Assembly: GCF_963921235.1 (NCBI RefSeq)
Contig: NC_086108.1
Span: 75,518,001 to 75,582,000, forward strand
DNA: 64,000 bases
Reading direction: 5' to 3'
Source: Mobula hypostoma
Lineage: Eukaryota
Positions 11,138 through 62,640 of this stretch are shown in pieces (the first letter of the stretch is position 1; each line of letters begins with the position of its first letter). The position numbers and the translations under genes were made by a program. A model generated the notes under the pieces. That model saw nothing but the letters and a program-made list of their open reading frames with translations. It had not been told where the DNA came from and ran no database searches.

Positions 11138-11701
11138 CACTGAACAACAATAGTTCCCAATTTGTCATCACTTAAAAAGTTTTGTTTTGTGCAACAAAGT
11201 GGATGACGTCTTATTTCCACATCATATTCCATCTGCTCTGTCTCAACCATTCACAGTGAACATGATCTCCCTTGAAGCCTCTTTACACTCTTCCGGACAA
11301 ACAGTCCCACTCCATCCTGTATTATCAGCAAACAAGGAAATATTGTATCTGGTTCTCTCAGCCAGATTGGTGACCTAAATCATAAATAGTTGGGGCCCAA
11401 GCAATAATCCTTCAGGGATCAAGGATCAACCTTGCCATAAATATTTACATGTGTTAGGAAATTACTGTGGTGTGTTGGTCAGGGTGTGGCAGGCAACAAC
11501 ATTCAACAATTATAAAGTATAAAGAACTAAATAAAAATAAAGTTAGAGATTAAAGCACAGATATGGAATAAAATATGCATAAGTACATACATGCCACCAT
11601 GTATTTACCATACAAACAGCAATATAAAATGTGGTCTAAAGTACTTACAGTGTAGTGCTGTGATCGAGGTAACAGATGGGGGTGGGAGGTAACTAGAATG
11701 G

Positions 11702-11842
11702 TCGACATTTTGGGTCGAGAACCTTCATCAGGAAACATCGACTGTTTATTCTTTTCTATAGATGCTGCCTGGCCTGATGAGTTCCTCCATGATTTTGTGT
11801 GCATTGCTTGGATTTCCAGCACCTGCAGATTTTCTCTTGTTT
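11702..11842 (+). mobile_element. Short PLE terminal-repeat insertion with a small inverted 5' piece
   Basis: PLE end motif GATGCTGCCTGG...CCAGCACCTGCAG; TSD GTAACTAGAATGG (11689-11701) / GTAACTACAATGG (11843-11855). Confidence 0.8.
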
Positions 11843-12817: not shown

Positions 12818-13831
12818 AGAGTTCGAGAAAATCTGCAGATGCTGGAAGTCCAAGCAACACTCACAAAATGCTGGAGGAACTCAGAAGGCTAGGCAGCATC
12901 TCTGGAAAAGAGTCCTGTCGATGTTTTGGAATGAGACCCTTCATCGGGACTGGAAAAAAAGATGAGAAGTTAGAGCAGGAAGGCGGGGAATGGGAGGAAG
13001 AAGTACAATGTGGTAAGTGATAGACGAAACCAGGAGAGAGGGAAGGGTGAAGTAAAGAGCTGGGATTCTGATTGGTGAAAGGGCTGGAGAAGGGGGAATC
13101 TGATCGGAGAGTGTAGAAGACCATGGAAGAAAGGGAAGGGAGAGGAACACCAGAAGGGGATGATGAGCAGGTAGAGAGATAAGGTGAGAGATAGATTTGG
13201 GAATGGAGGCATTCTGAAGGGAGGAATTTTGAGAAATCAATGTTTATGCCATCAGGTTGGAGGCTACCCAGATGGAATATAAGCTGTTGCTCCTCCAACA
13301 TGAGTGTTGCCTGATCGTGGCAGGAGAGAAAGCCATGCACTGACATGTTAGAATGGGAATAGGAAGTAGAATAGAAATGAGTGGCCACCAGGAGATCTCA
13401 CTTTTTCTGGTGGAAAGAGCGTAGGTGCTCGGCAAAGCAGTCTCCCAATCTACGTTGGGTCTCGCCAATATACAAGAGGCCACACCAGGAGCACCAGATA
13501 AAGCAGATGACCTCAACAGACTCACATGTAAAGTGACACCTCACCTGAAAGGACTGTTTTGGGCCCTGAATGGTAGTGAGAGAGGAGGTGTAGGGGAAGG
13601 TATGGTATGTGACTTCCTTGTCCACTCATCCCTCCCCACTGATCTCCTTTATCCTTGCAAATGGAATAAGTGCCACACCAGGCCCCTGGACTTCCTTCCT
13701 CCTCATTCTTGCTTTAACTTCTGTCACCTTTTATTCCAGTCTTGATGAAGGGCCTTGTCCCAAACTATTTACTCTCTTCCATAGATGCTGCCTGGCTTGC
13801 TGAGTTTCTCCAGCATTTTGTGTGTATTGCT
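12818..13831 (-). mobile_element. Penelope-like element 3' part (GIY-YIG remnant) with inverted terminal repeat
   Basis: Minus-strand VICFIWCSWCGLLYIGETQRRL and LQPDGINIDFS; plus-strand PLE end at 13610-13831; flanks CCCATATCCCA / CCCATTATCCCA resemble a TSD. Confidence 0.85.
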
Positions 13832-15265
13832 CCCATTATCCCACTCTTTGTTTTCTGTCTATTGTTCAATTCTCAATCCACACTAGCATGCTACCAGACT
13901 GTGAGTGCAGCCAGTCTAGTATCTTGTGTTACCTAGCTGAAAATAGTACTTTCTCTTTAATTTATTTATTGCTTGGAGATACGGGCATCACTGATCAGGT
14001 CAGCATTTATGGACCAGCCCTAGTTGCCCTTGTGAAGATGGAGGTGAATCACCTTTATGAACTGTTGCATTCTTTCTGGTAAAGGGGCATCCACAGTTAG
14101 ATGAGGAGTTCCAGGATTAAGTATCAGTGACAATAAAGAAACAGTGATGTCATTCCAGACCCTGGTTGACAGTTCATGAAGTTTCTCTGCTCCTGCTGCC
14201 CTTGCCCTGCAAGATGAGTTTGGAAGAAGCAGTCAATATTGCAGAGGCAAATATACAAATAAACTAAGTTAACAGGATGGAGCAGATTCTGAAAAGCAGC
14301 AAGCTTTTGATGGCTGAAACATCATGACCCAACGTCCTCCGGCACTGCCCCAACCTCCATCCTCCTAACCACACGCACCGTACCCCATCTCACAGAGCCA
14401 TGAAATCTCCAGGGAGAGGAAAAATAAACAGAGAAACATAGGAATTATCTAGCAGACAAAATGCTTTATAGAATTCTCTCCTTTCCCCTGTGGTAGTCAA
14501 AATGAATCCAAGGGATGAAATCATGTCAAAGAAAGAACAATCCCCACTCCTTGCAAAAGGAGCAGAAATAGATAGGGAGAATAGATCTTCAGAGATCTTG
14601 TCCCAAGAAAGCTAAACCCAGCTGCATATTACTGTCCTTCATTTAAAAAACAGCCTGACCAGCCTGTAAGAACTAAAACAGTAAAATGGTCTTACTCAAT
14701 CTCCACTACAGTATCTCCTAATTTGCTTCACCATTAACACCACTCTCCATTGAAACATATCTGAAGCACTTTATTACTACTGCAGCAATTCAACACAGTG
14801 TTTGAAGTGAGCAGCAAATTCTCAAACTGTAACTTTTCTGAGTCGCTGGCTAAGTTCTAAATATCCTTTTACAGGCAATAATCCTTTGACAATTGCCTCC
14901 ATTAAAAGTCATTACAATAATTACTTGTCTGATTATTAATGGAGAATCAGGGAGGTTGCTGAGGGAAGCAAAAATATGCAAGGAAATCCCTGTAATACTG
15001 GAAATTTTTTAGACCTGTCATTTTTAACAGTAGGGTCTCTTTTGAATAACTTGCTGTAATCTGCCACCCAGGAGCCAGAAAGACTGAGAACCTGGCCAAT
15101 GAACACACCAACATACAGCATTGACTAACAGAACCTACCCGGTCGCCACTTGCAATCTCCACCAGTGGTCTATTGTATACAGTCTTCAAGCACTCAGTAG
15201 CAACACACTCCCAAACCCATGGGCTGCTTCTTCAGCAAGCATTCTCAAATTTATGGCAGCCACTA

Positions 15266-16898
15266 ATGAACACAAGAGATTCTGCAGATGCTGGAAATCC
15301 AGAGCAACACACACAAATGTCTCTGGCAATCCAGAGCAAATGTCACGCCACTTTTTAAGAAGGGATGTAGGCAAAAGATAGGCAACTATAGGCCAGTTAG
15401 CTTCACATCTGAAGTCAGGAAAATGCTTGAAGCTGTCATTAAGGAAGAAATAGCTAAACATTTAGAAAGGAGTGGTTCCATTAGACAGACGCAGCATGGA
15501 TTCAAAAAGGGCAGGTCCTGTTTGACAAACTGACTGGAGTTCTTTGAGGACATAATGAACAGAGTGGATAGAGGGGAACAGGTGGATGTAGTATACTTGG
15601 ATTTCCAGAAGGCGTTCGATAAGGTGCTGCACAAGAGACTTATAAATTAGATACGGTTGCATTGCGTCAGAGGAAGTGTATTGGCATGGATAGTGGATTG
15701 GTTAACCAATAGAAGGCAGAGAGTTGGTATAAATGGGTGTTTCTCCGGTTGGCAGTCGGTGGTGAGTGGGGTGCCGCAGGGGTCGGTGCTGGACCCGCAG
15801 TTGTTTACCGTTTACATTGATGATTTGGAAGAGGGGACTCAGTGTAGCATAGCAAAATTTGCTGATGACACTAAACTGAGTGGAAAAGCAAATTGTACAG
15901 AGGATATGGAGAGTCTGCAGAGGGATATAGATAGGTTAAGTGAGTGGGCCAAGGTCTGGCAGATGGACTACAATGTTGGTAAATGCGAGATCATCCACTT
16001 TGGAAGGAATAATAGAAAAGCAGATTATTATTTAAATGGTGAAAGATTGCAGCATGCTGTTGTGCAGAGGGACTTGGGAGTGTTTGTTCATAAATCGTAA
16101 AAAGTTGGCTTGCAGGTACAACAGGTTATTAAGAAGGCAAACAGAATGTTGGCCTTCATTGCTAGAGGGATTGAATTCAAGAGCAAGGAGGTCATACTGT
16201 AACTATACAGGGTACTGGTGAGGCCACACCTGGAGTACTGTGTGCTGTTCTGGTCTCCATACTTGAGGAAGGATATACTGGCTTTGGAGGCAGTGCAGAG
16301 GAGGTTCACCAAGTTGATTCCAGGGATGAAGGGGTTAACCTATGAGGAGAGATTGAGTCGCCTGGGACTATACGCTCTGGAATTCAAAAGAATGAGAGGG
16401 GATCTTATAGAAACATACAAAATTTTGAAAGGGATAGGTAAGATAAGAGTAGGAAAATTGTTTCCATTGGTAGGTGAGACTAGAACTAGGGGACATTGCC
16501 TCAAGATTCAGGGGAGAAGATTTAGGATGGAGATGAGGAGAAACTGTTTTTCCCAGAGAGTGGTGAATCTGTGGAATTCTCTGCCCAGGGAAGAATTTGA
16601 GGCTTCTTCACTAACTATGTTTAAGAAACAGTTAAATAGGTTTTTACATAGTAAGAGAATTAAGGGTTATGGGGGAAAGGCAGGTACATGAAGCTGAGTT
16701 TACGGACAGATCAGCCATGATCTTATTGAATGGCAGGGCAGGCTCGATGGGCTGGATGGCCTACTCCTGCTCCTATTTCTTATGTTCTTATGTTCTTATA
16801 CAAAATGCTGGAGGAGCTCAGTAGGTCGGGCAGCATCTATGGAGAGTATTAGAGAATCAACATTTCCACATTTCCAGTCAGACCCATTGTCAGGAGCC
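15266..16898 (-). mobile_element. Short PLE terminal-repeat element split by a CR1 insertion
   Basis: PLE end at 15266-15320 resumes at 16800 (ACAAAATGCTGGAGGAGCTCAG); perfect 13-bp TSD ATGGCAGCCACTA at 15253-15265 and 16899-16911. Confidence 0.85.
15333..16799 (+). mobile_element. 5'-truncated CR1 LINE (RT pseudogene with in-frame stops)
   Basis: ANVTPLFKKG, NYRPVS, QHGF, GVPQGS, FADDTK, RPHLEYC; TTCTTATG tail. Confidence 0.95.
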
Positions 16899-17907
16899 AT
16901 GGCAGCCACTACCTTGCAGAACGTTATAAAATATCTCCATCAAGTTCTCCTCCTGGTATTGAGAGATATCATTTTCAAAATTCAGTGAATCGTTACTTAA
17001 TAGGATTGTGGGAATACTCTCATAATATTAACTGCAGCAGTTCAAAGAAAAAAAACCTTCACAACAAGGGTCTCCAGGGCTGGACAGTGAATCCCAATAA
17101 CTGTCAGTAAAACAAATATTCCATAAATCTTTTTAAAACAGAATATTTATTGCTACCTGATGGCCACGGCCATGTTCTCTTCTGATTATTATCCCCTTTG
17201 CCTGGTATTCATGTGTTCATGTAGAAAGTGTTAAAATATTCAGAACGTTGCTTTAACCTACTCTAGTTGTGAGGAGAAAATATTTTAGGGAAAGTGTATT
17301 GCCAAGTAGCTTTTTCGTGCATGTATTGAAACAATAAAATTATTATGTTATTAATTGTCCAACATGGGAAAAGAACAAATGCTTCCATTCCATTTAAAAC
17401 AAATATGATTGCACTTTCCAAAAGAGGGGAAAAGTTCTCTAAAAAATAGCAAGCTATTGTACCATTTTTTTTCAGTCATCTTGAGATTGACTCTAAGCAC
17501 AGCCTCTCCTAATGAGAAGTACAGAAACCTCTTTATTTCAGAGTTAGTCCGCAAGGTCATATTTTGCTTTGCCTAAGGTTTACCTAGCTGGTGCCAGCAT
17601 ATTTATAGCATTTACAGTACAAGGTATATATCCAAGAAAAAAAGAAACACTGCAGAACTTTTATGTTAGTACTGTATCTCTTTTATTTATAGGCTCTGTG
17701 GGGCTCAATCTCAACTTCAGTCAGAAAACCAGAATTTCTCCCGAGTCTATGTGCTTCAGTTCTGCCTGCTATTACTCTCCACTGGCTAGAAAAATCAGGA
17801 GTGGTGTGAATGCAGTTGATCCCAACATTGCCAATTTCCTGACAAGCAGAGAGCTTTTATCTGAGCAAAGAATTGTTCAACAACCAAAATAATTGAAGAA
17901 ATCAGAA

Positions 17908-18030
17908 AAAAATGCAGATGCTGGAAATCTGAAACAAACACAGAAAATGCTGTATGCATTCAGAAGGTCAAAAAGCATCTGTGCAAAGAGAAACAGTTAA
18001 CATTTCAGATCCAGGATCCTTTGTCAAAAC
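17908..18030 (-). mobile_element. Old PLE terminal-repeat fragment
   Basis: TGCAGATGCTGGAAATCTG...AAAATGCTG...GCATCTGT, similar to other PLE ends in the window. Confidence 0.6.
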
Positions 18031-21000
18031 ATTTCTTTCAGAAAAAAATTCTGGAACTGGATCAGGTAATGAAAATAATTTTTATTCTATTGATGAATCC
18101 AATAATCTCAATTTTATTAAACTAAACTTCCGTTACTATTAGCAGCATGCTATTCTTTACATCAAACTAGTCTCTCAATCATTGTATTTAGCAATTTATT
18201 AATCTGACCAGCCAAACTCTGTTCCAGTTTTACAGTCAATAACTATTACACAATGATGGCTCAAATTCTGGAATCCTTTTTTGACTTCCAAAAGGAAACC
18301 ACAATTTACATATCAACTCTGGGAATTATATATTAAAGAAATGTCCTAGCGCCTACTCTGAAAATCATTCGTTCCTTCCGTGTGAGTTCTTTACGAATTT
18401 CAATCCAACCTCATGGGAGTTTGGTGTCTGTCTCTCTGCCAGCTCACTGTAAGCAAAATTATTCTGCCAGCTGTCAGAAGACAGTTTAATCCCAAAATTC
18501 CTCTATTGGCACCAAGATCGGAACGCTGTCTTCAGTAAAATAAAAATTTAAGTATAAATAAGACTGATTTTAAAATTAAAACCTTTAGAATATTGTATAT
18601 AACCTAAGATTTTGCAATCATTCCAAAGCAAAGGCAATTGGAATGGTATATGCCAATTTAAAGGTGTTTGGTGTTGACATTGAAGGAAACTGCCCAAGAT
18701 ATCTGCTGATCTCTCCTTTGATCTACTTGGCATTCAGCATCTCTGATGTTATTACAGTGGCTGAGTGCTTAATCACTTAAAAAATACAGACACCAAACTA
18801 AGAAGGGAAAGGCACAATTTGGGCAAAATGAAAGGCTTTTATTTGTTCAGTACGTGTACTGTTTACCAGAGTTTGATCAGTGTATAATTGCACCCAAAAT
18901 AGATAATAGAGAAGATAAACATGGTTTAACTTGTTAATTATGAATAAATTGAGCAATAATTTAATAGTTAATTATTTTCTGTAATTGCATTTCTCTCTCT
19001 GTGAGGCTTTAGCATATCGATTCAACAATCAATATGCTTTATAGAGTGTAAGTGAAAGGGTGAATGAAGCAATGCCAAAAAGTTGCATTATATTTTCAAA
19101 AACTATTAGTTTTTTTTGTAAAGGCCAGGCTGACTGTATAAATATCTTGCCAGCTGTAATTTTAAGGTCCTCACTTTAAATTGTTTCTTTGAACCCGTGG
19201 AAAGTAAATCATTGGTTATCTTGTTAAAACAAATGCTTCTTAAGATTAATTTCAAAATGAATTATAGGACCTTTCTCACAGATATTTTTGGGCAATTTTG
19301 AGTCACTTTCTCAGCTCATCATCAAACTTCAATGCAGTCAAACTGACATTGGAATAGTTCCGCTGTGTTTCGATATTAAATGGAATAATTTCTCATGTTA
19401 AAATGGAATCATTCCACAAAACAGAAACAGTTTCATTGGGTTCTGATTGGCCTGAGAAAAACGGATATTTTAGGTATTGTGAATTAAATTGGGATATCTT
19501 CACTCAGTTATTGTTAGAGACAAAACCCTGAACTCCAGAATCAAGCCAAGTACCTCAACCATGTTGATAACAATGCAGCAGCATGGAGTCTAATGTTATT
19601 AGAAGTATTAATTATTTAGAAGGATTTTAAAAGGTCCCATTCTAAGTCATGCCAACAGAACAATTCCTTGGCTCACTAATAATATACATATGCTGCAGAT
19701 TGCTAAGTTTTTGACCACTTAATTGCCTCATAGGATAAGAAATAAAATAGACTCTTATGAATGACTTTCCTCCGTTCTCTAAACACATAGCTCTTGAGCA
19801 GATGAGGACAGATAGCAGAATTCATTTTGGGGTATAATACTAGGAGACAAGCAACAACATTAGATTTTAAAAACTAGTTTCATCTTTTAAAATATGTTAC
19901 CACTGCAGGAGGTAATCTTTGTGACTAAAAATTAATTATTCCATAGAAACATTTCAAAAGGATCAGAGAATGATGTCATCAGATTTAGAAGAACAAGAAA
20001 ATGCATGCGCTCTCAACTAAGTTGAAGAATACCTCAGGAAGAAACTGATTGAATTAACCAGGAAGGTAAGAAGAGTATTCTCTGGGTTTTATTTCCAGGC
20101 TCATTTCCTATTAAGTAACTAAAAGGTGTCCATCTCCATAAATGTTGGTTAAACAATGGGTTGAGATACTTCATTCAGAATCCATCTCCTCAGTCTCACC
20201 ATCAGCACATCAGGGTTACTGATTGTGATGAATGATTTTTTTAAACATTTCTGCAGTTATTTATTGTTCTTGTTTGAAAGATTAAAATGCTATGCAGAAA
20301 TTACCTCCATTTTAAAATATTTATTATGTTAATCAACTACTATCCTCCAACCAGCACTGATTTTACCCCTTCCACTGAGGTCTACTCTCAACTCTAGTGG
20401 CTCACACCTGAACTCCAGTTTGGAACCACTGGCTTTCTATTAATCCCAGCAGTATCAGCTTGGAGACATCTGTCCACATCCAGTAGTTTGATTCGTCTAG
20501 TCGTCTCCGCAATCAGGTCATTTTATTCATTCAATGGATGAGACAATACTACAAAGATGAGCATTTATCGCCCATCGCTGGTCACCATAGAAATGAATAT
20601 CTTGTCTAAAAACAACTAAGATTCAAACATACTCATGAGTCTGGAAGTCAGACCAAACAGGTGTGGTAGATACAGTGCCTTTCTCTAAAGAATATAAGTG
20701 TTCCAGCTCCAGTAATTTCATAGTCAGTGTTGTTCCTTCTAACATTGATCCACTACAGACTTTTCCATATTCTTGGCCTTTAGATCTTACAAGGAACACA
20801 ATGCTAGTCAATTTGAACAGCTGGAAACCAAAACTAATATTTCTCTCTCTGTCCTCCTAACAGCTAGCGAGAGTGAGGTCTGCTTGCTCGCTCAGAAACT
20901 TTGTCATTCTGTGCAACTCCACAGGAAGCACACACACACACAGAAAATATATATATTTCCATACACATACCACAACCAAGCAAAAACTCTGGCCACCAAT

Positions 21001-37036: not shown

Positions 37037-39433
37037 CCAAACAAAGGGACCTTGGGGGTCCAAGTACATTTCTCTCTGAAAGTGACACACTCAGTCAAAA
37101 AGGGTGGTGAAAGAAGCATATACTTCATAGGTTGAGGCATAAAATATTAACGTTAGACACTGGAGCATGGAGTCCAGTTCTGCTTACCACACTATTGGAA
37201 GGGTGTGGTTGCACTGCAGATTGCAGAGGAAGTTTGCCATGCTGTTGTCTGGATTGTTCAGTTTAGTTATGTAGAGAGTTTGGATAGGCTGGGATTGTTT
37301 TCCATGAAGTGAAGGAGGCAGAGGAATTTGATCAGTTACAAGAAGCATATACCGCATAGGGCAGAAAGTCAGAATCTTATCCTATGGTAGGTGTATCAAA
37401 AACAAATTGATTATATTTGCGGCTCTTCAGCACTCTAAAGCAGGTAATTAGTTCTTTGATGAATTCTCCACTAGTCCTGTCCGGCAGTAGGAGTGGGTAG
37501 ACAGTGACAAGTGCAACTCCATCCCTTTCTATTTCAAACTGCAACAAACTTCTTATTTAGATCTGTACATGAGAATTGACCTCATATCTGAAACATATGT
37601 GGAATTCAGCTGCTTCCACAGGGAGCTTGTAGTTCAAGCCTCATGTAGTTAAAACCCAAGGCCCCATTCAGGACTACCTCAGCCCCAAGAAACAAACTAT
37701 TTTTTTACCCTTGAAACCTTCTCTTTGATCCTTCTCTTTAAAATTGCTTTGGGACTTATCTCAAGCCAGATCTTTAATATAAAATTGTTTTGAACACCCA
37801 AAAGACATGATCCTTCAAATATTTTTTTTCTTTTTGCCCGACTGATTTCAAAACAATTAAGCCAAAACGATACTGAATTATCAAGACTGATATATTGACA
37901 ATGTCATAATGTTAGTATATCTTGTAGAAAGTATTTCCAATTTATGGAGAATGAAAGTGAAATGCTTCTTTCCTCTTACCAACATTTAACATTTATTTAG
38001 TATGTCTTTCTGCACAGGGACATCATATCCAAGCAAGAAAGAGCAGCAGTGGGCCAAACTGTCCATTGTACATAAAAATCACATCAATGTAATGGTGGCC
38101 ACTTTACATCAAATCTATATTTTCATCCCAATCTCAAACGTTCTTGATCACTGACTTTCTTGATTCAAAAACATTTCAGCCTTGGGTACACTCAGTGACT
38201 GACTATCAACACCCTTGAGATGAAAATTCATAAGATTTCCAACAGTCTGAGAAAGAAATTTCTCATTTCAGACTAAAATGGAAAACCTCTTTCCTTTGGA
38301 TTAGGGCATCCACTTGGAAGGAGCATCCTTACAACATCTACCTTGACATTTGCACATTGATGAAAAGTAGATATTGTAAGAACATTCAGAACCTTCAGAA
38401 ACTTCAGAATCCTGTGCACACACGCAAGTGAATTAAATCTATAAACAGCACTACATTTTAAGTAGTAAGCTCTACAACTTAAGTAATTCAGGCAATATAG
38501 AGTTTCTTTATTATAGAGAAATTCACACATCTACCCATGCACAAACATAAATATAAGCTTAGAAGTCTGAATGTTTTATGAGTTCTTGACAGAAAGCAAT
38601 TGGCCCAAGTTCTAAATATGAAGCTGCCTGTACCATCACCACTTCACAGAGGAGAACAGTTGAACATAAGAGTATAAAATGTACATTATTGGGCCCCTTC
38701 ACTTGGCCCCTGTCAATTTGTTAGGAAGAAAACAGTAAGCAGAGCAGTTATCCTCCTGCAGACATCTATCAGCCATCCTACTCCTTTATAAAGGGCAGCC
38801 AGTGGTTTCATGGACAATCCAGACTCTTCAACAGTCCTGTCAAACACAGATAACAGATCCATTTGTTACTTGGAACCATTTCCAAATTTATTTGTAATTA
38901 CAAAAGTGGTAACATCTGTTTCTCAGCAAATAGCAACATTTGTCTCATGGATCAACTTGAAATGGAATACTTATTACTTCTAACTTCCCACTGTCTCCAG
39001 TAAAACTGAATGAGAGTTCAATAAAAATTAAGACAAGAGACTATCACTCTCCAAGGTAGGTCAATACAATGTGTCCTTTTGGCAAACTAGAGGGAGAAGC
39101 CTCTGTGAATGCAAACCATGAGGCAGAAGTGTGCATATTTAAATGTGACTGGTTTTGCATGTGCACTGTAACCTATTAAACATTTACACTTTATTGCTTG
39201 CATTTAATATTTGGACAGTGGGAGGAGCGAGTCATTGGTGGCCCTTAGCAAACAATATGCTTTAACTGACAATCACAAGAACAGGTGTACAATTCCGTAT
39301 TTAGCAGTGTTCCTATGTATTTAAAGTTCTGTGTAAATAATTAGAATCTTACCTCTTCTCTAAACTCAAGTCAGTCACCAGTCAAAGTTGCTGGTGAACG
39401 CAGCAGGCCAAGCAGCATCTGTAGGAAGAGGTG

Positions 39434-39471
39434 CAGTCGACGTTTCAGGCTGAGACCCTTCGTCAGGACTA
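39434..39471 (-). ncRNA. Minimal type I hammerhead ribozyme motif
   Basis: Minus strand UAGUC CUGACGA AGGGUCUCAGCCU GAAA CG UC GACUG; core and stems I and II intact; activity is inferred. Confidence 0.75.
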
Positions 39472-39765
39472 ACTGAAGGAAGAGTGAGTAAGGGATTTGA
39501 AAGTTGGAGGGGGAGGGGGAGATCCAAAATGATAGGAGGAGGGGGAGGGATAGAGTCAAGAGCTGGACAGGTGATAGGCAAAAGGGGATACGAGAGGATC
39601 ATGGGACAGGAGGTCCGGGAAGAAAGACGGGGTGGGGGGGACCCAGAGGATGGGCAAGAGGTATATTCAGAGGGTCAGAGGGACAGAGGGAGAAAAAGGA
39701 GAGTGAGAGAAAGAATGTGTGCATAAAAATGAGTAACAGATGGGGTACGAGGGGGAGGTGGGGCC

Positions 39766-41010
39766 TTAGCGGAAGTTAGAGAAGTCGATGTTCATGCCAT
39801 CAGGTCGGAGGCTACCCAGACGGAATATAAGGTGTTGTTCCTCCAACCTGAGTGTGGCTTCATCTTTACAATAGAGGAGGCCGTGGATAGACATGTCAGA
39901 ATGGGAATGGGATGTGGAATTAAAATGTGTGGCCACTGGGAGATCCTGATTTCTCTGGTGGACAGAGTGTAGATGTTCAGCAAAGCGGTCTTCCAGTCTG
40001 TGTCGGGTCTCGCCAATATATAAAAGGCCACATCGGGAGCACCGGACGCAGTATATCACCCCAGTCGACTCACAGGTGAAGTGTTGCCTCACCTGGAAGG
40101 ACTGTTTGGGGCCCTGAATGGTGGTAAGGGAGGAAGTGTAAGGGCATGTGTAGCACTTGTTCCGCTTACGCGGATAAGTGCCAGGAGGGAGATCAGTGGG
40201 GAGGGATGGGGGGGACGAATGGACAAGGGAGTTGTGTAGGGAGTGATCCCTGCGGAATGCAGAGAGATACGGGGAGGGAAAGATGTGCTTAGTGGTGGGA
40301 TCCTGTTGGAGGTGGCGGAAGTTACGGAGAATAATATGTTGGACCCGGACGCTGGTGGGGTGGTAGGTGAGGACCAGGGGAACCCTATTCCTAGTGGGGT
40401 GGCGGGAGGATGGAGTGAGAGCAGATGTACGTGAAATGGGGGAGATGCGTTTAAGAGCAGAGTTGATAGTGGAGGAAGGGAAGCCCCTTTCTTTAAAAAA
40501 GGAAGACATCTCCCTCGTCCTAGAATGAAAAACCTCATCCTGAGAGCAGATGCAGTGGAGACGGAGGAATTGCAAGAAGGGGATGGCGTTTTTGCAAGAG
40601 ACAGGGTGAGAAGAGGAATAGTCCAGATAACTGTGAGAGTCAGTAGGCTTATAGTAGACATCAGTGGATAAGCTGTCTCCAGAGACAGAGACAGAAAGAT
40701 CTAGAAAGGGGAGGGAGGTGTCGGAAATGGACCAGATAAACTTGAGGGCAGGGTGAAAGTTGGAGGCAAAGTTAATAAAGTCAACGAGTTCTGCATGCGT
40801 GCAGGAAGCATCGCCAATGCAGTCGTCGATGTAGCGAAGGAAAAGTGGGGGACAGATACCAGAATAGGCACGGAACATAGATTGTTCCACAAACCCAACA
40901 AAAAGGCAGGCATAGCTAGGACCCATACGGGTGCCCATAGCTACACCTTTAGTTTGGAGGAAGTGGGAGGAGCCAAAGGAGAAATTATTAAGAGTAAGGA
41001 CTAATTCCGC
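39766..41010 (-). CDS. PLE RT C-terminal half plus Cys linker plus GIY-YIG endonuclease (5'-truncated, open frame)
   Basis: QTKGVAMGTRMGPSYA, FLRYIDD, LPFLDL, VYYKPT, KCYTCP, VIYCVRCSRCGLLYIGET, PDGMN. Confidence 0.9.
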   Translation of the reverse strand, partial: AELVLTLNNFSFGSSHFLQTKGVAMGTRMGPSYACLFVGFVEQSMFRAYSGICPPLFLRYIDDCIGDASCTHAELVDFINFASNFHPALKFIWSISDTSLPFLDLSVSVSGDSLSTDVYYKPTDSHSYLDYSSSHPVSCKNAIPFLQFLRLHCICSQDEVFHSRTREMSSFFKERGFPSSTINSALKRISPISRTSALTPSSRHPTRNRVPLVLTYHPTSVRVQHIILRNFRHLQQDPTTKHIFPSPYLSAFRRDHSLHNSLVHSSPPSLPTDLPPGTYPRKRNKCYTCPYTSSLTTIQGPKQSFQVRQHFTCESTGVIYCVRCSRCGLLYIGETRHRLEDRFAEHLHSVHQRNQDLPVATHFNSTSHSHSDMSIHGLLYCKDEATLRLEEQHLIFRLGSLRPDGMNIDFSNFR

Positions 41011-41052
41011 TAATTAAGAGTAAGGACTAATTCCATTGTCCATTGACAACTC

Positions 41053-43962: not shown

Positions 43963-44429
43963 AACTCCCTTGTCCATTCGTCCCCCCATCCCTCCCCACT
44001 GATCTCCCTCCTGGCACTTATCCGTGTAAGCGGAACAAGTGTTACACATGCCCTTACACTTCCTCCCTTACCACCATTCAGGGCCCCAAACAGTCCTTCC
44101 AGGTGGGGCAACACTTCACCTGTGAGTCGACTGGGGTGATATACTGCGTCCGGTGCTCCCGATGTGGCCTTTTATATATTGGCGAGACCCGACACAGACT
44201 GGGAGACCCCTTTGTTGAACATCTACACTCTGTCCGCCAGAGAAAGCAGGATCTCCCAGTGGCCACACATTTTAATTCCACATCCCATTCCCATTCTGAT
44301 ATGTCTATCCACGGCCTCCTCTACTGTAAAGATGAAGCCACACTCAGGTTGGAGGAACAACACCTTATATTCCGTCTGGGTAGCCTCCAACCTGATGGCA
44401 TGAACATCGACTTCTCTAACTTCCGCTAA
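43963..44429 (+). pseudogene. PLE GIY-YIG domain fragment (inverted duplicate arm)
   Basis: HFTCESTGVIYCVRCSRCGLLYIGETRHRL...QPDGMNIDFSNFR. Confidence 0.9.
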
Positions 44430-44723
44430 GGCCCCACCTCCCCCTCGTACCCCATCTGTTACTCATTTTTATGCACACATTCTTTCTCTCACTCTCCTTT
44501 TTCTCCCTCTGTCCCTCTGAATATACCTCTTGCCCATCCTCTGGGTCCCACCCCCCCTTGTCTTTCTTCCCGGACCTCCTGTCCCATGATCCTCTCGTAT
44601 CCCCTTTTGCCTATCACCTGTCCAGCTCTTGGCTCTATCCTTTCCCCTCCTGTCTTCTCCTATCAATTTGGATCTCCCCCTCCCCCTCCAACTTTCAAAT
44701 CCCTTACTCACTCTTCCTTCAGT

Positions 44724-44761
44724 TAGTCCTGACGAAGGGTCTCGGCCTGAAACGTCGACTG
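44724..44761 (+). ncRNA. Minimal type I hammerhead ribozyme motif
   Basis: UAGUC CUGACGA AGGGUCUCGGCCU GAAA CG UC GACUG; predicted cleavage after 44756. Confidence 0.75.
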
Positions 44762-44947
44762 CACCTTTTCCTACAGATGCTGCTTGGCCTGCTGCATTCA
44801 CCAGCAACTTTGATGTGTGTTGCTTGAATTTCCAGCATCTGCAGAATTCCCGTTGTTTTCAGTCACCAGTGTCTAGTTTGCCCAAAAGCTGCCAGCAAGG
44901 TTTAAAGTACAAGTGTTAAAATGATTAATAATGCTTATATCCAAAGA

Positions 44948-45092
44948 TATCTTACATCTTATGCTCTGAAGAAGGGTCCCAGCTCAAAATGTTGGCTGTT
45001 TGTTCATTTCCACAGATGTTGCCTGACCTGCTGAGTTCCTCCCGCAGTTTATGTATGTGGCTTTGGTTTTCCAGCATCTGCAGAATCTCTCG
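44948..45092 (+). mobile_element. Short PLE terminal-repeat insertion starting at a decayed hammerhead
   Basis: CTGAAGAAGGGTCCCAGCTCAAAATGTT...CCAGCATCTGCAG; direct repeat TGCTTATATCCAAAGA at 44932-44947 and 45093-45108. Confidence 0.8.
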
Positions 45093-45181
45093 TGCTTATA
45101 TCCAAAGACAGTTTTAATGAAAGATGTTATGATATCAGCTCATTACCATCTTGATTGCCATCTTAACACTAATTTGAGCCA

Positions 45182-45790
45182 CACACATCAAAGTTGCTGG
45201 TGAACGCAGCAGGCCAGGCAGCATCTCTAGGAAGAGGTACAGTCAACATTTTGGGCTGAGACCCTTCGTCAGGACTAACTGAAGGAAGAGTTAGTAAGAG
45301 ATTTGAAAGTGGGAGGGGGAGGGGGAGATCCGAAATGATAGGAGAAGACAGGAGGGGGAGGGATGGAGCCGAGAGCTGGACAGGTGATTGGCAAAAGGGG
45401 ATACAAGAGGATCATGGGACAGGAGGCCTAGGGAGAAGGAAAAAGGGGGAGGGGGGGAAAACCCAGAGGATGGGCAAGGGGTATAGTCAGAGGGACAGAG
45501 AGAGAGAGAGAGAGGGAGAGAAAGAATGTGTGTATATAAATAAATAACAGATGGAGTACGAGGGGAAGGTGGGGCATTAGCAGAAGTTAGAGAAGTCAAT
45601 GTTCATGCCATCAGGTTGGAGGCTACCCAGACGGAATATAAGCTCTTCCTTCAGTTAGTCCTGACGAAGGGTCTCAGCCCGAAACGTTGACTGTACCTCT
45701 TCCTAGAGATGCTGCCTGGCCTGCTGCGTTCACCAGCAACTTTAATGTGTGTTGCTTGAACTTCCAGCATCTGCAGAATTCCTCGTGTTT
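45182..45790. mobile_element. Small inverted PLE (minus arm 45182-45641, plus arm 45642-45790)
   Basis: Terminal inverted repeats of about 110 bp; perfect 14-bp TSD ACTAATTTGAGCCA at 45168-45181 and 45791-45804. Confidence 0.9.
45656..45693 (+). ncRNA. Minimal type I hammerhead ribozyme motif
   Basis: UAGUC CUGACGA AGGGUCUCAGCCC GAAA CG UU GACUG. Confidence 0.7.
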
Positions 45791-46049
45791 ACTAATTTGA
45801 GCCAAGTGCTTGGCGGTAGGTCTGTATATGCTGAGATCAGACAGAAATCCCACCTGTTTAGCTCCCTTAAAGTAATTTAGTTTTATTCATGTTAAACTTA
45901 GGTAATAGCATAAAAACCTCAACAAAACTTGCAATCAAATTGCTTATCATATCTCATGATTTTAAATAGAGACTATTGCAGTATAGGAAAGTTTTTGCAA
46001 CTTTTATTTTAAACCTTTATAATTTCAAGATCACTGGTTTATTAAATAG

Positions 46050-46670
46050 ATCAAAAATTGCATTAGGACCACAGAAGAGGAATAGTTCATGGAATGTTCA
46101 GAATCCTGATAGCAGAGGGAAGAAAGCTGATCCTAAAACATTGAGTGTGCATCTTTAGGCTCTTGTACTTCCTCCCTGATGAGAATAATGAGAAGGAGGT
46201 ATGTCCTGGATGATTATGGTGCTTAATGATGGATGCTGCCTTTTGAAGATGTCCTCGGTGGTAGGGGCAGAGGGGAGGGACTTTGCCCATGATAGAGCTG
46301 TTTGAGTCTACAACCCACTGTGGCCTGTAACAATCATTGGCATTGGAACCTCCATGCCGTGGTGCAGCCAGTCAGAATCCTCTCCATAGTACACCAGTAG
46401 AAACTTACTAGAATCTTTCATTACATATCAAATCTCCTCAAACCCTTGATCAAGTAGAGCTGCTGGTGTGCCTTCTTCATGGTTGTAACAATATGTTGGG
46501 CCCAGGACAGATCTTCTGAGACGTTGAAGCCCAGGAACTTGAAGCTGATCACCCTTTCCACTCCAGCGCCCTCAGTGAGGACTGGTGTGTGCTCTTCAGA
46601 GCTCCTCTTCCTGAACTTCACAATCTATTTCTTGGTCTTGCAGTTGTTTAATCAACCAGTCAATTTCCTA
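46050..46670 (-). mobile_element. Degenerate Rex1/Babar 3' fragment
   Basis: VERVISFKFLG.N.SEDLSW, KKAHQQLY, HPGHTSFSLFSSGRKYKSL. Confidence 0.8.
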
Positions 46671-46671
46671 A

Positions 46672-48230
46672 CCAACACACACAAAATGCTAGAGGAACTG
46701 AACAGGTCAGGCACTATCTATGGAAATGAATAAGCAGTTGACATTTCAGGCCGAAGCCCTTCTTCAGGATTGAAATGGAAGGAGAAGACACCAGAATAAA
46801 AAGGTGGGGGAGAGGAAGGACACTAGCTAGAAGGTGATAGGTGACGCCAAGTGGGTGGAAAGGTCAAGGGCTGGAGAAGAAGGAATCTGATAGGAGAGGA
46901 GAGGGCACTATAGGAGAAAGGGAAGGAGGAGGGAACCCAGGGGGAAGTGATAGGCAGCTGAGGAGAGGTAAAAGGCCAGAGTGGGAAATAGAAGAAGACG
47001 GGAAAGGGAGGGAATTTTTTTTTATTGGAAGAAAAAGTCAATATTCATGCCATCAGGTTGGAGTCTACCCAGATGGAATATAAGGTTTTGTTCCTCAACC
47101 CTGAATGTGGCCTCAGCTTGGCACAAGAGGAGGCCATGGACAACATGTCAGAACAGGAATGGGAATCAGAAAGTGTTTGACTGCTGGGAAATCCCACTTT
47201 TGGCTTTCGGTAGGTGCAGCGGAGGTGCTCAATGATTCCCCCAATTTCCGAAGGGTCTCACCAATGTGGAGGAGGCCACATCGGGAGCGCTGGACACAAC
47301 AAGATGACCCCGGCAGATTCACAAGTGAAGTGTTCCCTCACCTGGAAGGGCTGCTTGGGACCATGAATAGAGGTTAGAGAGTAGGTGACTGGGCATGTGT
47401 AGTATTTCTGCTGCTTGCAGGATTAAGTGTCAGGAGGCAGAGTAGTTGGAAAAGACGAATGGACAGTGAAATCACAGTGGGAGTGATCCCTGCAGAAAGT
47501 GGCGGGGGGGGCGCGATGGGAGAGGTAAAGATATATTTGGTGGGAGGATCCCTTTGGAGATGGCAGAAGTTGCAAAGGATGATGTGTTGTATGCGGAGGC
47601 TTAACGGGTGGTAGGTAAGGAAAAAGGGAATTCTCACTGTTTCGGTGGCGAGAAGATGGGGGAAGGATGTTTGGGAAATGGAGGAGATGCAGCTAAGGGC
47701 AGTATCAATAGTGGTGGAAGGGAAATCCTGTTCTTTGAAGAAGAAGGACACCTCGGATGTCCTGGAAAGGAAGCCCACGTCCTGGGAACAGATACAGCAG
47801 AGGCAAAGAAACTGAGAAAAGGGAATAACATTTTTACAGGAGACAAGGTGGGAAGAACTATAGTCAAAGTAACCATGGGAATCGGTAGTTTTATAAAAGA
47901 TGTGGGTTAACAGTTTGTCTCCAGAGATGGAGAGAGAGAGATTGAGAAAAGGGAGGGAGATGTCAGAAGTAGACCAAGTGAACTTAAGGACAGAGTGGAA
48001 GATAGAGGCAAAGTTGATGAAATTGACGTGCTAAGCATGGGTGCATGAAGCAGTACCAATGCAGTCATCCATGTAATGGAGGAAGAGTTGAGAAGTATTA
48101 CCGGCAAAGGCTTCAAACATAGACTGTTCTATTTAGCCAACAAAGAGGCAGGCATAACTAGGGCTCATGTGGATGCCCATGACTACTCTTCAAGTCTGGA
48201 GAATGTGGGAGGAGCAGCAGAAAAAATTGT
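46672..48230 (-). mobile_element. Older degenerate PLE (RT and GIY-YIG remnants)
   Basis: CGLLHIGETLRKLG and LTYHPLSLRIQHIIL, colinear with 39400-40990; hammerhead remnant at 46734-46771. Confidence 0.85.
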
Positions 48231-51613: not shown

Positions 51614-53243
51614 TTAGTATAAAATTGTGCAGTTCCAACATAACACATGTACCTCTCAGAGACAGAAACATAAAATATGGCATATTTTTCTGCAATTATT
51701 AAACATTTAAGTTTAATAGTGAAACATTTAATAGCTTATAGCCAGGAGCAGAGCACCCATGACCATATGGAACGTTGGGACAGACCTGAGGGGTTGAGTT
51801 GCCTATTCATGCTCTTATGTCACCCAAAATTGAAATTAGTGCAACGATTCATATTTTGACTGAGGATACGGAGTCACATTTGGGTGATGGATCTTGTCAA
51901 GATTTACTATTGCCCAGAATCCATATTTCTAACCAGTTAGCTCAAGAAAGCCACTATGATTTTGTGGCATTCAGACATAAGATTCTATACTTACCCACAT
52001 TTGAGTCAGAGAAGCCTGTCATTCTTTTTCAATAGTGCTTTCCAGAGCTGACTTTCATCTTCAGGTAATGCCTAACTAGTCAACGTCATGTAACCTTTGT
52101 GCGTATATATATTGATATATAAGCTATGGTGTGAACTTAATTGACATAAACATGAATGAGAAAAACAGTGTTTCCTTTTTGTTTGTTTGTCTCCCAGCTT
52201 TCTGCTGAAGACTAAAACTGATCTGTCTTTTTCAAAACTTCCATGTAACTCAATAGTTCACATGGTGAAGGAGAGTGATATTTAAAAGGCTGCAACAACG
52301 GGCATGAATATCTCAGCAAGTAATTCCTTCTAAAGGTCACAGCAGGAAAAGAATAAAAGAGCAACAACAGTATTCAAACCCATTCTCCTTTGTCGATGTT
52401 ATTTGTCTACATGGTTCCAGCCCACGGACATTGTAAATAATTGTTCAAAATTTACAGCTGATAGAGGGCCCCCAAGCTTAATGCGGACCTCAAAAGCAAG
52501 TTTTTATTCCCAGAATAATTTTACACCCTGTACCCTCCTTCTTCCATCTTAGAGTAATTCTGTATATTGTAATAGCCACTGTGTTGTAATAATCTTGAGT
52601 TTGAGCCTGAATAGAGGCTCACCAACAAAGCAATGATAAAAACATTAACTATTGACTTAACCACAGTTCCTGGTTGTGCCACCTGCCAAAGCTAAAGAAA
52701 GCTGTGAATGTTCTTGACTTCCAATGTATTCAAAAACCATCCAAGCAATTAAATTTTAACTTTTTAAATTAAATAACCATGAAGGCTAAAACATTCAAAT
52801 AATTTCAAAATAACTGACTGTAAGCTTAGTTTCACAAAGCCATTCCTCTCCACTGAAATAAAAGGAGAACCTGTCCCTGCAGATTGTTTGAATGAAATTC
52901 CTGCTGTAAGTGGTGGACATTTGGGTTCTTTTGCAGAACTCCACGAGGCTTTCAGCAATGGAGTACACTTGGAAAATAAACATGCGCAGCTGCCCACAAC
53001 TTCTGGACTTCAGCATTCACAGAGAAATCCCAAAGATGCTGACAGTTATGTAGAGGAAATGTTGGCAGTTACCCAGGGAAGTGCAGACATTTCCCTGCAC
53101 AATCACGGCCATTAACTTTCTACATTAATGAAAATCATGCAGGCTATAGAACCCACAGTCAATCCTCCCACCCCCAGTTCTGACTGCCGAGGGAAGTTAA
53201 AATCTATTTCAATAAGTCTACACAGACTATGAGGTAAATGCTT

Positions 53244-53338
53244 CCTGACGAAGGGTTCCGGCCCGAAACGTCGACAGATTTTTTCCACGGATGCTGCCCG
53301 ACCTGCTGAGCTCCTCCAGCGTGTTGTGAGTATTGCTT
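53244..53338 (+). mobile_element. Short PLE fragment beginning at a hammerhead core
   Basis: CTGACGAAGGGTTCCGGCCCGAAACGTCGAC...GATGCTGCCCGACCTGCTGAG. Confidence 0.8.
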
Positions 53339-53576
53339 ATCTTTGTTTCTTAGGCAGAGTATCACCCGAGCATGGCACAAAAAAATGGAACATCAGGTAA
53401 GAAGCATTGCACATTGCTGACACTTAAATGAATTGACCATAATAACATAATACAGGAGCAGAGTTAGGCCATTTGGCCCATCGAGTCAGCTCTGTCACTC
53501 CATCATGGATGATTTATTATCCCTCTCAATCCCATTCTTCTGCCTTCTCCCTATAACTTCCGGAAATAACTTCTCC

Positions 53577-57830: not shown

Positions 57831-58501
57831 AGTAATTATTTCATTTTTGTTTGTATTTCAGTCTTATTCAATAAAGTCAAAAATGTAATTTTAAATGAGA
57901 AGCATCATGTGGATTCCATCTGGCTTCACGAGTTACCCTGATATGAGTTATGCAAGATACATTGAATGCTCCCAAATGAATGGAACATTGATATATCAGT
58001 ACTGGTACTTACAGTGATAGATTATCTCAATGTATTTGTTCAATGAACTCAAGGAGGAGTTGATAGCTGACTAATGCCTTGCATCATATTTTGACAAGAG
58101 ACATCTCAGTTTATATAGCTTTGATAAATTATAAAACAACATGGCACTAATATAGACTCATATCTGCAGTGTCTTAGTTCACATTTCAATAGATATCACC
58201 AGCAGCAGACAAGACTTGAGAAATATATATGTGCTTTATTAAATGAAAATGTTCTTTGAAATATTATTTGTAGAACCTGAACCAAACTATTTCCCAAAAT
58301 AAAACATAGAAAAGAGCAAGCTTCGAAGAAAAAGAAGAATATTTATGCATGAAGGCTATTCTTTTCTAATATATTGGTAAATGGGTTTATTATTGTCACA
58401 TGTACTGAGGTACAGCGAAAAACTTGTCTTGCATAGTTAAATTCATTATAACAGTGGATTGAAGTAGTACAAGATAAAACAATATTAGAGTGCAGAATAA
58501 A

Positions 58502-58740
58502 TTAACACACACAAAATGCAGGAAGAACTTGGCAGGGCAAGCAGCATCATTGAAAAAAGTAAATAGTCGTCGTTTCAGGCCAAGACCCTTCATCAAGGCT
58601 AACCAGTCCTGATGAAAGGTCTCGCCCAGAAACTTTGACTGTTTATTCATTTCCATAGATGGTGCCTGACCTGCTGAGTTCCTCCAACATTTTGTGTGCG
58701 TTGCTTTGGATTCCCAACAGCTACAGATTTTCTCGTGCTT
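58502..58740. mobile_element. Palindromic mini-PLE (two inverted terminal repeats only) inside a Rex1-like 3' UTR remnant
   Basis: Arms meet at about 58600 between two opposed hammerhead remnants; 12-bp TSD GTGCAGAATAAA at 58490-58501 and 58741-58752. Confidence 0.85.
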
Positions 58741-59489
58741 GTGCAGAATAAAGTGTTGGTTACAGTGAAAGTGGAGTGCAATTAGACATTTATTTATTGA
58801 TATCATAGCACCAAAAAAAAACAGCAACAAACAATTGCTCAAATAAATGAATAATAAGCAACCAGCAGAAAAAAGGAAAATAATAAGTAAATTATGATTT
58901 GAAAAGATTTTGAAATTATTTATTAAGCTGTAAAAAATACATTGAAAAACCAGACAATGGAAGAAAATAGGACTGTGAATGATCACAATACCTTTACTGT
59001 GCAGCAATCTTGTATTGTCATGCAGGGGTTATTGGAACCCAAGTTACAGGAGTTTCACGTTACAGTCTTGAAACTAGAAGTGACTGTATCGGCAGTGCAC
59101 TGGTAAAAAGATATTGGTGTTCCATTATGGAATTGTAATAAATTATTACAGCCACTTAAACTAATCTGTAAAATTATTATTGAGACACAGGACCGCTAAG
59201 ATTAACAAGTTTTAAAAACTATCAGCTTGGAAAGCTGATTAAGACTCATACAAAGTCAATACTTTTGATCCAGGAAATTGCTGCATGTTCTGCACTGTTC
59301 ATTCATTTTGTGATGATCGCTGTGCTAGTTAGTAGTTGGTTTGTGGTGTAAGTAATATTGCTTCCAACTGATTGGATTGTGTGGGTGTTGGTAATATAGA
59401 ACTGCATTCCTGAGACCATACTCTGATTGTGCAAGGTCATCATTGTTTTCTTCCTTTAATTCAGTAACCACTTCCATTCTATGTACAAA

Positions 59490-60889: not shown

Positions 60890-62640
60890 AAAAAAAAGGA
60901 ATTGCATTTGCTATTTTCCAAACTAATGGAATCTTCCCCAAATAAAGGAAATATTGGGGAATTAAACACAACAGCAACTATCACATTAATCTCTTCTTTT
61001 ACGAACTGAGAATTACGTACAGTACTCACGGATTTATAAACCCACAGCTCCAATAAGTTGCTCAGTACCACTACCCTGATGATTATAAATTTTTTGCATT
61101 CCTCCTGCTCTTCCAATTCATGATTTACAGCTTTGCTGGGATGTTATATTTTCTGTAGTGAACAACCTGACCGCTATCTACGACCGTCGCTTTCTCTTGC
61201 CCACACTACAAGAGAGTATGTGGATCCTGGATCAACCTCTACAGCCATCTGAGGACCCACCAATAGCCAATCCCTGAGGAGAACATCCTACTCAACTCGT
61301 GTGATCACACTACCAGCAGATCTTCTGTGGTGAAGCCTGACACAAAATACTTGTTTAATTCATTTGTCAACACACAGAAAATACTGGAGGGACTCAACAG
61401 GTCAGACAGTATCTATGGAGGGGAATGAATAGTCAATGTTTCGGACTAAGACCCTTCATCAGGATTGGAAAGGAAAAGCGCAGAAGCCAGAAGTGGGGGG
61501 GAAGAGCTCAAGTTGGCAGGTGATAGGTGAATCCAGGTGAGAGGTTGGAGGAGGGGTAAAAGAGAATGATATGAGAAGCTGGGAGCTATTGGGTGGAAGG
61601 GTCAAAGGGCTGGAGGAGACAAAGAAGGAATTTGATAGGAGAGCACAGTGGATATTGGAATATAGGGAAAGAGGCAGGGAATCAGAGAGAGGAAGGTGAA
61701 AGTGTTGGGCAGGTTGTTAGGATGAGGGAGAGGAAAGAGAAGGGGTAAAGGGGCCAGAGGAATAAGAGAAAACAAGGGGTGGGAAACAGAAATTAGGAAA
61801 ATCCTAATTCCTCCAGTCTGTGTGTGGCCACAATGTGGCAGTAGAGGAAACCATGGACAGACATGCCAGTGTGGAAATAAGAAGTGGAATTAATATGGCT
61901 GGCCATGGGTAGATCCTGGCTGTTGTGGGGAACAGAGCAGAAATGCTTGGCAACGCGACCTTGTAGCTGTGTCAGGCCTCTCTGACGTAGAGGAGGTGCA
62001 CCAAGAGCACCGGATGTAATAAGTTACACCCATGGAGGCGCATGTGAAATGCCGCCTGACATGGAAGGACTGCTTAGGGGCCTGAATGGCGGGAGGGAGG
62101 AGGTGTAAGGGCAGGTGTAACACTTAGCACAGTTGCAGAGATAAATGCCTCTTCTCTTTCCTCTATCCTGCCCTCATGTTACCTGCCATCACCTTTTCCT
62201 TCATCTGGTTCCACACTTTCTTCCCTTTATCCCATGGTCTATTATCCTCAATCAGATTTCTTCTTCTTCCACCCTTTGCCTCTTCCAACTCCCAACTTCT
62301 CAAGTCACTTTCTGTTAGCTTCCTTCCCTACCTCCTGCTCCTCCTTCTCACCTGAATTTACCTACCACGTGTCAGCTAGTGATCCTCCCTCTCTTCCCCC
62401 CCACTCTCTCTTTTATTCTAGCTTCTATGTTTCCAGTCCTGATGAAGGGTTTTGGCCTGGAACATCGACTGTTCATTTCCCTCAATTGATGCTGCTTGAC
62501 TTGCTGAGATCCTCCAGCATTTTGTGTGACTTGCCCCAATTTCCAGCATCTGCAGCACCTCTTGTGTCTCTGTAGTTCATCCGCCAGCTCCTTGCTATCC
62601 GTTGTTAATTCCCCAAAGTCACTTCCTGCATTCACAGAAG
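60890..62640 (-). mobile_element. Old CR1 remnant interrupted by a PLE
   Basis: VLSNLLEL...EDSISLENSKC aligns by eye to the CR1 pre-RT region; it continues at 61310-61368 and 62571-62640. Confidence 0.55.
61369..62570. mobile_element. Older inverted PLE (minus arm to about 62140, plus arm to 62570)
   Basis: QAPKQSFHVRRHFTC...YYIRCS remnant; hammerhead remnants at 61430-61467 (-) and 62434-62471 (+); decayed TSD-like flanks. Confidence 0.8.

Follow-up and report, generated by a model that had tools for sequence, protein, structure and literature searches.

Minimal hammerhead motifs in the terminal repeats of an abundant Penelope-like element, and where its genomic copies begin

We think it probable that the motif recurring through a 64,000-nucleotide stretch of Mobula hypostoma DNA (hereafter the window) is a minimal type I hammerhead ribozyme (HHR) in the terminal repeat (pLTR) of an abundant Penelope-like element (PLE), that its copies in the window are relics which likely do not cleave, and that the element would be copied by the scheme set out in the Discussion. 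Copies start preferentially at the 5' edge of helix I and almost never at the scissile bond, and then undergo CpG decay.

Results

The motif and its copies in the window

A profile built from eight copies identified 18 family matches in the window, and the hammerhead region is present in 16 of them; the other two are 11725-11831(+), which starts at about G12, and 15279-15322(-), which is tail only. An earlier note had listed about 15 motifs from the letters alone. All of these sites exist, and one further decayed copy lies at 17995-18031(-). Three of the 16 copies pass a minimal-hammerhead descriptor, at 39435-39470(-), 44725-44760(+) and 45657-45692(+), the last with GUU as its cleavage triplet, and these are exactly the three that had been called intact. 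The same descriptor gave 241 matches in 1.53 Mb of fetched, motif-enriched DNA and 0 in a reversed-sequence control, and an Rfam scan gave no match at E<=1. At 53241-53276(+) the core is whole and helix I is cut to 2 bp, which bears out the description of a copy near 53245 with an intact core and a missing stem I 5' strand. Core letters are kept, with helix I, II or III broken, at 46736(-), 58605(+) and 61431(-), and core lesions (for example G12>A, G8>A or C3>U) are found in the other nine copies. The statement that loop II varies while its pairing is kept fails in several decayed copies (12916, 13738, 17995, 58605 and 61431). Most window copies are decayed and likely inactive. The copies are as follows.

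44725..44760, forward strand: intact minimal hammerhead with helix I AGUC/GACU (5 bp including the flanking U.G), core CUGACGA, the extra A, helix II GGGU/GCCU with a G10.1.U11.1 wobble, GAAA, C15.2-G16.2 and GUC; predicted scissile bond 44756/44757
43963..44858, forward strand: 5'-truncated PLE copy of family A, 96% to the full unit, containing the ORF end with GIY-YIG (43965-44429), the 3' UTR/pLTR, the hammerhead and a tail ending at +101
39382..41012, reverse strand: 5'-truncated PLE copy with an intact hammerhead at 39435-39470 and a 415-aa open part of the ORF (39766-41013, GIY-YIG)
45168..45804: separate insertion in head-to-head form, its 14-bp target duplication at 45168 and 45791
45171-45642, reverse strand: inverted copy of that insertion, with a G12>A hammerhead at 45241-45276
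45643-45790, forward strand: forward copy of that insertion, with the hammerhead 45657-45692 (C11.1, GUU)
53241..53360, forward strand: family B stub with an intact core, which starts at U2.2 (-30) and illustrates the edge pile-up described below
11698..11842: old fold-back pair, with a decayed hammerhead at 11700-11735(-) and tail at 11725-11842(+)
12829..13835: old head-to-head unit with decayed hammerheads at 12916-12951(-) and 13738-13773(+)
16800..18031, reverse strand: two very decayed copies, 16863-16897 and 17995-18031
44962..45086, forward strand: old decayed copy, G12>A
46667..48030, reverse strand: old-lineage PLE fragment; hammerhead 46736-46771 keeps its core letters, and its helices I and III are broken
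58490..58752: old fold-back unit that has a 12-bp target duplication; hammerheads 58565-58600(-) and 58605-58640(+), both broken
61367..62565: old copies with hammerheads at 61431-61466(-) and 62435-62470(+, A13>G)

We considered the copies at 44724 and 45656 as a tandem dimer pair and rejected this, because 45656 has its own target duplication and a fused inverted partner; the two are separate insertions.

The window also holds long open parts of LINE ORFs at 32361-34154(+), 35457-36779(+), 41031-43862(+) and 53451-55176(+), which we take to be RTE-like, Rex/L2-like and CR1-like. RVT_1 was found on the three LINE ORFs scanned, with an APE endonuclease at 41031 and an ALKBH8_N match at 35457. 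The LINE at 41031 adjoins the 5' end of a PLE copy (41012), beside a 19-bp tandem duplication.

Comparison with published minimal hammerheads

Minimal hammerheads are defined by one nucleotide that lies between position 9 and position 10.1, a G10.1-C11.1 pair, a palindromic 15.2-16.2 and the lack of loop III, with the consensus CUGANGAH-G...C-GAAAN-palindrome-NUH (Cervera 2014, PMC4209133, Fig. S3); they are found in fish Xena, Poseidon and Neptune elements (PMC4209133). The motif here has the core C3 U4 G5 A6 N7 G8 A9 ... G12 A13 A14 A15.1, U16.1 H17, and the extra A between 9 and 10.1 is present in 241 of 245 copies. Position 11.1 is C in older lineages, and a U11.1 wobble is found in 184 of the 245 family A copies; helix III is the palindrome ACGU in the lineage consensuses, without loop III. 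The earlier note was right that PLE terminal repeats here carry a minimal type I hammerhead. The extra A and the ACGU helix III, which the earlier note had inferred, are present as described but already known, because both belong to the published consensus (PMC4209133). We likewise rejected U11.1 as a novel core variant: G.U at 10.1/11.1 occurs in the alignment of that paper, whose near-identical examples include an Acropora Neptune hammerhead and natural G10.1.U11.1 pairs.

In its available text, the 2014 survey shares with our copies the type I topology, CUGANGA core, G10.1 pair and short helix I, as well as hammerheads in both flanking repeats and mostly solo copies with some close opposite-strand pairs (PMC4209133). 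It covers many variable families, whereas the motif here takes one very uniform form; its 56-row alignment is without cartilaginous fish, and the sections available describe no counterpart to the amplified A6C lineage treated below. Our literature search found no paper on this PLE family or on the pile-up of copy ends; the variants of Lunse et al. 2017 may include the motif.

The carrier is a Penelope-like retrotransposon

A Neptune-like Penelope element carries the motif in its terminal repeat (pLTR). Two of 12 long loci (L061 and L063) contain the full unit of ~3.51 kb in the order HHR-tail-ORF-3' UTR-HHR-tail, so that a hammerhead lies in both repeats flanking the ORF and the same-strand hammerheads are 3.5 kb apart. 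In these loci the ORF is 1016 aa counted from the first Met, and the 3' UTR is ~295 nt and pyrimidine-rich. The 1016-aa protein matches RVT_1 (E 2.8e-5) and GIY-YIG (E 0.0011), both below the curated cut-off, and a PDB sequence search with the ORF gave no match. The window ORF 39766-41013 matches GIY-YIG at E 2e-4, with many relatives at 94-96% (101 scored). The element has the single ORF with RT plus C-terminal GIY-YIG of EN+ PLEs, along with their partial tandems, inverted 5'-truncated copies and optional 30-40-nt tail. Its RT-EN linker, CKRNKCYTC, is of the form CX4CXXC, within the CX2-5CXXC linker that ties to Neptune and Nematis (PMC8557442) and unlike Poseidon (PMC11167929); judged by this linker, the clade would be Neptune (or Nematis).

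A strict 34-letter pattern has 66,422 matches in the 3.48-Gb genome and 0 in the control, and the core with a 13-nt spacer has 101,427 against 124 in the control, which upholds the earlier expectation of a very large genome-wide family. The core with a 14-nt spacer has 469 matches against 122 in the control; a second hammerhead family with this spacer was considered and dropped, with only eight matches. The 66,000-101,000 copies here compare with ~4,000 for coelacanth and ~9,000 for Xenopus, or about 10 times the highest count of the 2014 survey as given in its available text, the counting methods being different (PMC4209133).

Non-LTR retrozymes likewise carry a type I hammerhead from PLE pLTRs and are reported in one chondrichthyan (bioRxiv 10.64898/2026.07.22.740005, available text). 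They form tandem non-coding units each with a hammerhead, whereas the window copies are PLE fragments, dispersed as truncated or inverted pieces of a coding element. The ORF-start motif occurs at 921 places genome-wide, including short same-strand repeats 262-435 bp apart that are possibly retrozyme-like tandem units:

C1:46047717/46048152: same-strand ORF-start repeats, fetched as L203 and L204
C2:122542742/122543004: same-strand ORF-start repeats
C2:157816703-157817350: same-strand ORF-start repeats

Decay and conservation of the motif

Changes among 245 family A copies, a sample that favours intact motifs, comprise C7>U (16), G8>A (15), C15.2>U (15), G16.2>A (22), C17>U (20) and G1.1>A (17). 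Variation at N7 and in loop II is mostly CpG decay. It had been read as the kind of variation expected of a hammerhead; however, the harmless C7>U and the core-breaking G8>A are equally common, and N7 variation is therefore no evidence of function. No double-sided compensatory change was found among the 241 descriptor matches: helix I and II changes between lineages are one-sided only, and variation is dominated by CpG decay.

Compared with one another, the consensuses of lineages A (n=53, of which 40 aligned), C6 (n=9) and B (n=2) are 86-89% identical in the hammerhead, 54-66% in the UTR, 50-62% in the spacer, 75-87% in the tail and 78-88% in the ORF end. Master elements retain the motif, and the tail too. 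Because the tail is nearly as conserved as the hammerhead, this conservation need not be for catalysis. Two further stretches belong to the locus of the intact copy at 44725-44760:

44757..44858, forward strand: conserved tail, downstream of the scissile bond
44700..44726, forward strand: branch-like motif and polypyrimidine tract, with CAG at 44720-22 and TAG at 44724-26, at the helix I 5' strand

At 44757-44845 the tail, conserved across lineages, is modelled as a long stem (CAGAUGCUG/CAGCAUCUG) enclosing inner hairpins, a candidate protein-binding or RT-start structure. The stretch at 44700..44726(+) is a predicted 3' splice acceptor or initiator-like site. Its branch-like motif, polypyrimidine tract and YAG ending at helix I are found in all lineages despite UTR identity of only 54-66% (e.g. 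L011, L022, L024), and some family A copies have an exact TACTAAC branch motif (e.g. L024). In the Drosophila virilis Penelope pLTR, the 3' end of an intron lies at the 5' end of helix I, the place taken here by the polypyrimidine-YAG; the start site of that element precedes a proven 75-bp intron by 46 bp, and its hammerhead has a 2-nt loop III (available text of PMC2377424 and PMC4209133). In contrast, we found neither a donor for the YAG acceptor nor a spliced product, and no GT..AG joint at the acceptor occurs among the joints listed, from contigs that cannot show ends, strand or level.

Copies begin preferentially at the helix I edge

Three tests of genomic copy ends gave no enrichment at GUC/GACUG, where the earlier note had proposed RNA ends. 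A 23-letter tail pattern matched 75,672 copies, whose starts were scored under a three-mismatch rule: the scissile bond has 232 starts, position +4 has 211 and position -4 has 206. By our estimate ~0.28 (bond), 0.39 (+4) and 0.34 (-4) of random flanks pass this rule, and the bond may therefore hold a slight excess. Fold-back joints account for 24 of 30 cut-site starts, 21 of 30 at +4 and 19 of 30 at -4, and ORF read-through from cut-site starts was seen at 0 of 30 loci. Among 70 ORF-start copies sampled from the 921, one begins at the cut site and 17 begin ~18-55 nt upstream, a rate of 11 per kb at risk vs 1-4.5 elsewhere (negative offsets in this set are one too low, from one duplicated base in the reference). 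Finally, 34 of 258 family A copies begin at -33..-30, the helix I 5' strand, and three at -3..+4; the rate is 44 per kb at risk for the edge and 10 per kb for the flanks (P about 3e-12). Some of the 258 copies were sampled through intact motifs, which lowers the number of ends inside -30..+3, but an incidental subset of 85 copies has the same pattern (10 starts at -33..-30, 0 at -3..+4).

As copies start at the front edge of the motif and not at its cut site, the RNA that gets copied is likely uncut. The edge peak may be the 5' end of this RNA, at an initiator-like YYAGTC, or a stop where a cDNA hairpin forms. The 34 edge starts comprise 18 inverted and 16 genomic joints; splicing into the acceptor is an unlikely cause of the peak because the 18 are inversions.

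Fold-back joints use helix I microhomology. In a recurrent form, the inverted copy breaks off at helix I and resumes at the other strand of this helix (L075, L080, L084-L086, L089 and others), and from the sequence of these joints the helix I stem seems to have formed in the cDNA. By an ungapped estimate, 3' ends lie at +56..75 from the scissile bond in 85 of 171 copies and at +96..112 in 66 of 171. Many ORF-start copies (L193-L262) end at ~+165..+320 and four at +989, which suggests further 3' end (priming) sites.

The Poseidon element of Anolis carolinensis is the one vertebrate PLE tested for cleavage: its hammerhead cuts only with the element's protein, hammerhead mutants still insert in vitro, and no RNA ends lie at the cut site, as far as the available text goes (Frangieh et al. 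2024, PMC11167929). Its two-site tail was traced to internal RT starts, which our two 3' end clusters resemble: both elements have two 3' end positions ~35-40 nt apart downstream of the hammerhead, an uncut hammerhead within inserted copies and no ends at the cut site. The anole ORF starts inside the hammerhead, whereas the first Met here is ~135 nt downstream; the 5'-end pile-up at helix I seen here is not reported in the parts of PMC11167929 available.

Predicted folding and the A6C lineage

For the monomer, the predicted fold is a rod that pairs G5-G8 with C15.2-C17 (P(G5-C17) 0.98); the rod scores -11.0 kcal/mol and the open core -7.0 kcal/mol, in energies that leave out tertiary contacts.

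Of 345 copies sampled, 21 have C6, most of them together with linked letters in the UTR and tail, and at least 3,689 exact A6C copies occur genome-wide vs 1,156 for A6G and A6U together. In a tree built without position 6, the C6 label clusters (six changes vs a shuffled mean of 24; 88 rows, only 145 columns). A 1,036-column tree of 39 long copies out of 83 (every one of the 25 with ORF identity of <=90%, and 14 of the 58 above) places the origin of family A (100/100, stem 0.16) in a 97/96 node whose other 11 members are all C6. A young A6 family branching from a C6 node is a possible reversion. However, most C6 rows were chosen for C6, C6 also turns up sporadically at three other points and the node forms a polytomy; a template switch or a sister lineage with A6 therefore accounts for the tree as well as reversion does. 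Phage Bcep176 has a natural A6C hammerhead with the same core change as this older lineage, though as a single ribozyme with full helices, whereas here there are thousands of minimal retrotransposon copies (PMC3088659 and PMC7151607, available text).

This lineage bears on the reading that the motif is catalytically vestigial and kept as a structural or promoter/splice signal, its helix I overlapping the YAG acceptor/initiator-like site and forming a hairpin in cDNA. We consider this rather unlikely. The abundance of exact A6C copies agrees with it, and A6C strongly lowers Mg2+ cleavage in other hammerheads (PMC7151607, PMC3088659): in one tested ribozyme at 0.3 mM Mg2+, the change takes the rate of 0.30 per min down to 3.6e-6. 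The same ribozyme with A6C nevertheless cleaves at 1-10 mM Mg2+, with 0.067 per min at 1 mM and 0.33 at 10 mM (PMC7151607, available text), and A6C is predicted here to open the inhibitory rod (P 0.01-0.07 vs 0.95). The helix I microhomology at fold-back joints and the success of PLE clades without hammerheads (PMC8557442, available text) also speak for a vestigial motif; against it, the other core positions are the same in all lineage consensuses and A6 is present again in the young family. The A6C lineage weakens the case for a need of full activity, without showing that cleavage is dispensable.

Partners and the dimer model

The earlier note favoured an active dimer ribozyme, which following the Cervera model would cut tandem transcripts of the PLE into RNA of unit length, possibly circular, as the template for insertion. 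We judge this unlikely. Tandem units with two same-strand hammerheads 3.5 kb apart do exist, the core is kept between lineages, and ligation would rebuild the hammerhead and hide the cut. A schistosome minimal hammerhead cleaves weakly in vitro as dimer and trimer, and PMC4209133, in the text available, gives no cleavage for monomers and low cleavage for dimers; a need for dimers in cleavage would fit this literature. On the other hand, the pile-up of ends at the scissile bond is absent in short and ORF-start copies alike, the hammerhead dimer is predicted at -11.5 kcal/mol vs -22.0 kcal/mol for two rods, and anole hammerhead mutants insert normally in vitro (PMC11167929, available text). Among the first 100 listed cores, six have a same-strand partner within 4 kb, and most copies are therefore without a partner in cis; neighbour pairs closer than 4 kb in this set are 16 head-to-head, three tail-to-tail and three same-strand.

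It is very improbable that solo copies form a genome-wide ribozyme set cutting host transcripts in cis or trans: ~100,000 cores are intact and the palindromic helix III would let any two copies pair, but CpG changes that break the core build up as often as harmless ones, a rod is the predicted monomer fold, and the 16 of 22 close neighbour pairs that lie head-to-head would form long hairpins.

Discussion

Our preferred reading is that of an uncut template copied past a largely resting hammerhead. Reverse transcription would start internally in the tail and copy through the uncut hammerhead, and the RT would run off or stall at the helix I edge, which would most likely be the 5' end of the RNA. 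There it would often fold back, giving short solo or head-to-head copies. The master lineage, as literature and folding suggest, would keep the motif as a slow, conditional ribozyme resting in the inactive rod, and it would cut only when helped by a second hammerhead and/or the protein of the element, in a step not reflected in the copy ends.

We offer a fuller version only tentatively, and find it doubtful as a whole. In it, the hammerhead would mark the front of the template while uncut: the RNA would start at helix I, and priming 60-105 nt past the cut site would give strong-stop-like cDNAs, inserted as tens of thousands of stubs. The master lineage would have passed from A6 to C6 and back to A6, amplified with a weakened, uninhibited core before regaining the canonical one. 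If this version is true, selection on catalysis would act at a step other than template processing.

The in vivo role of PLE hammerheads is still open, according to the available text of PMC8557442. The ~100,000 intact cores and hundreds of ORF-start copies of this element are a large natural record. In that record, the copy ends argue that uncut RNA is copied, and they point to an RNA end or to a stop of the RT at helix I. In turn, the lineages with C6 and A6 are natural variants for testing whether catalysis matters in transposition.
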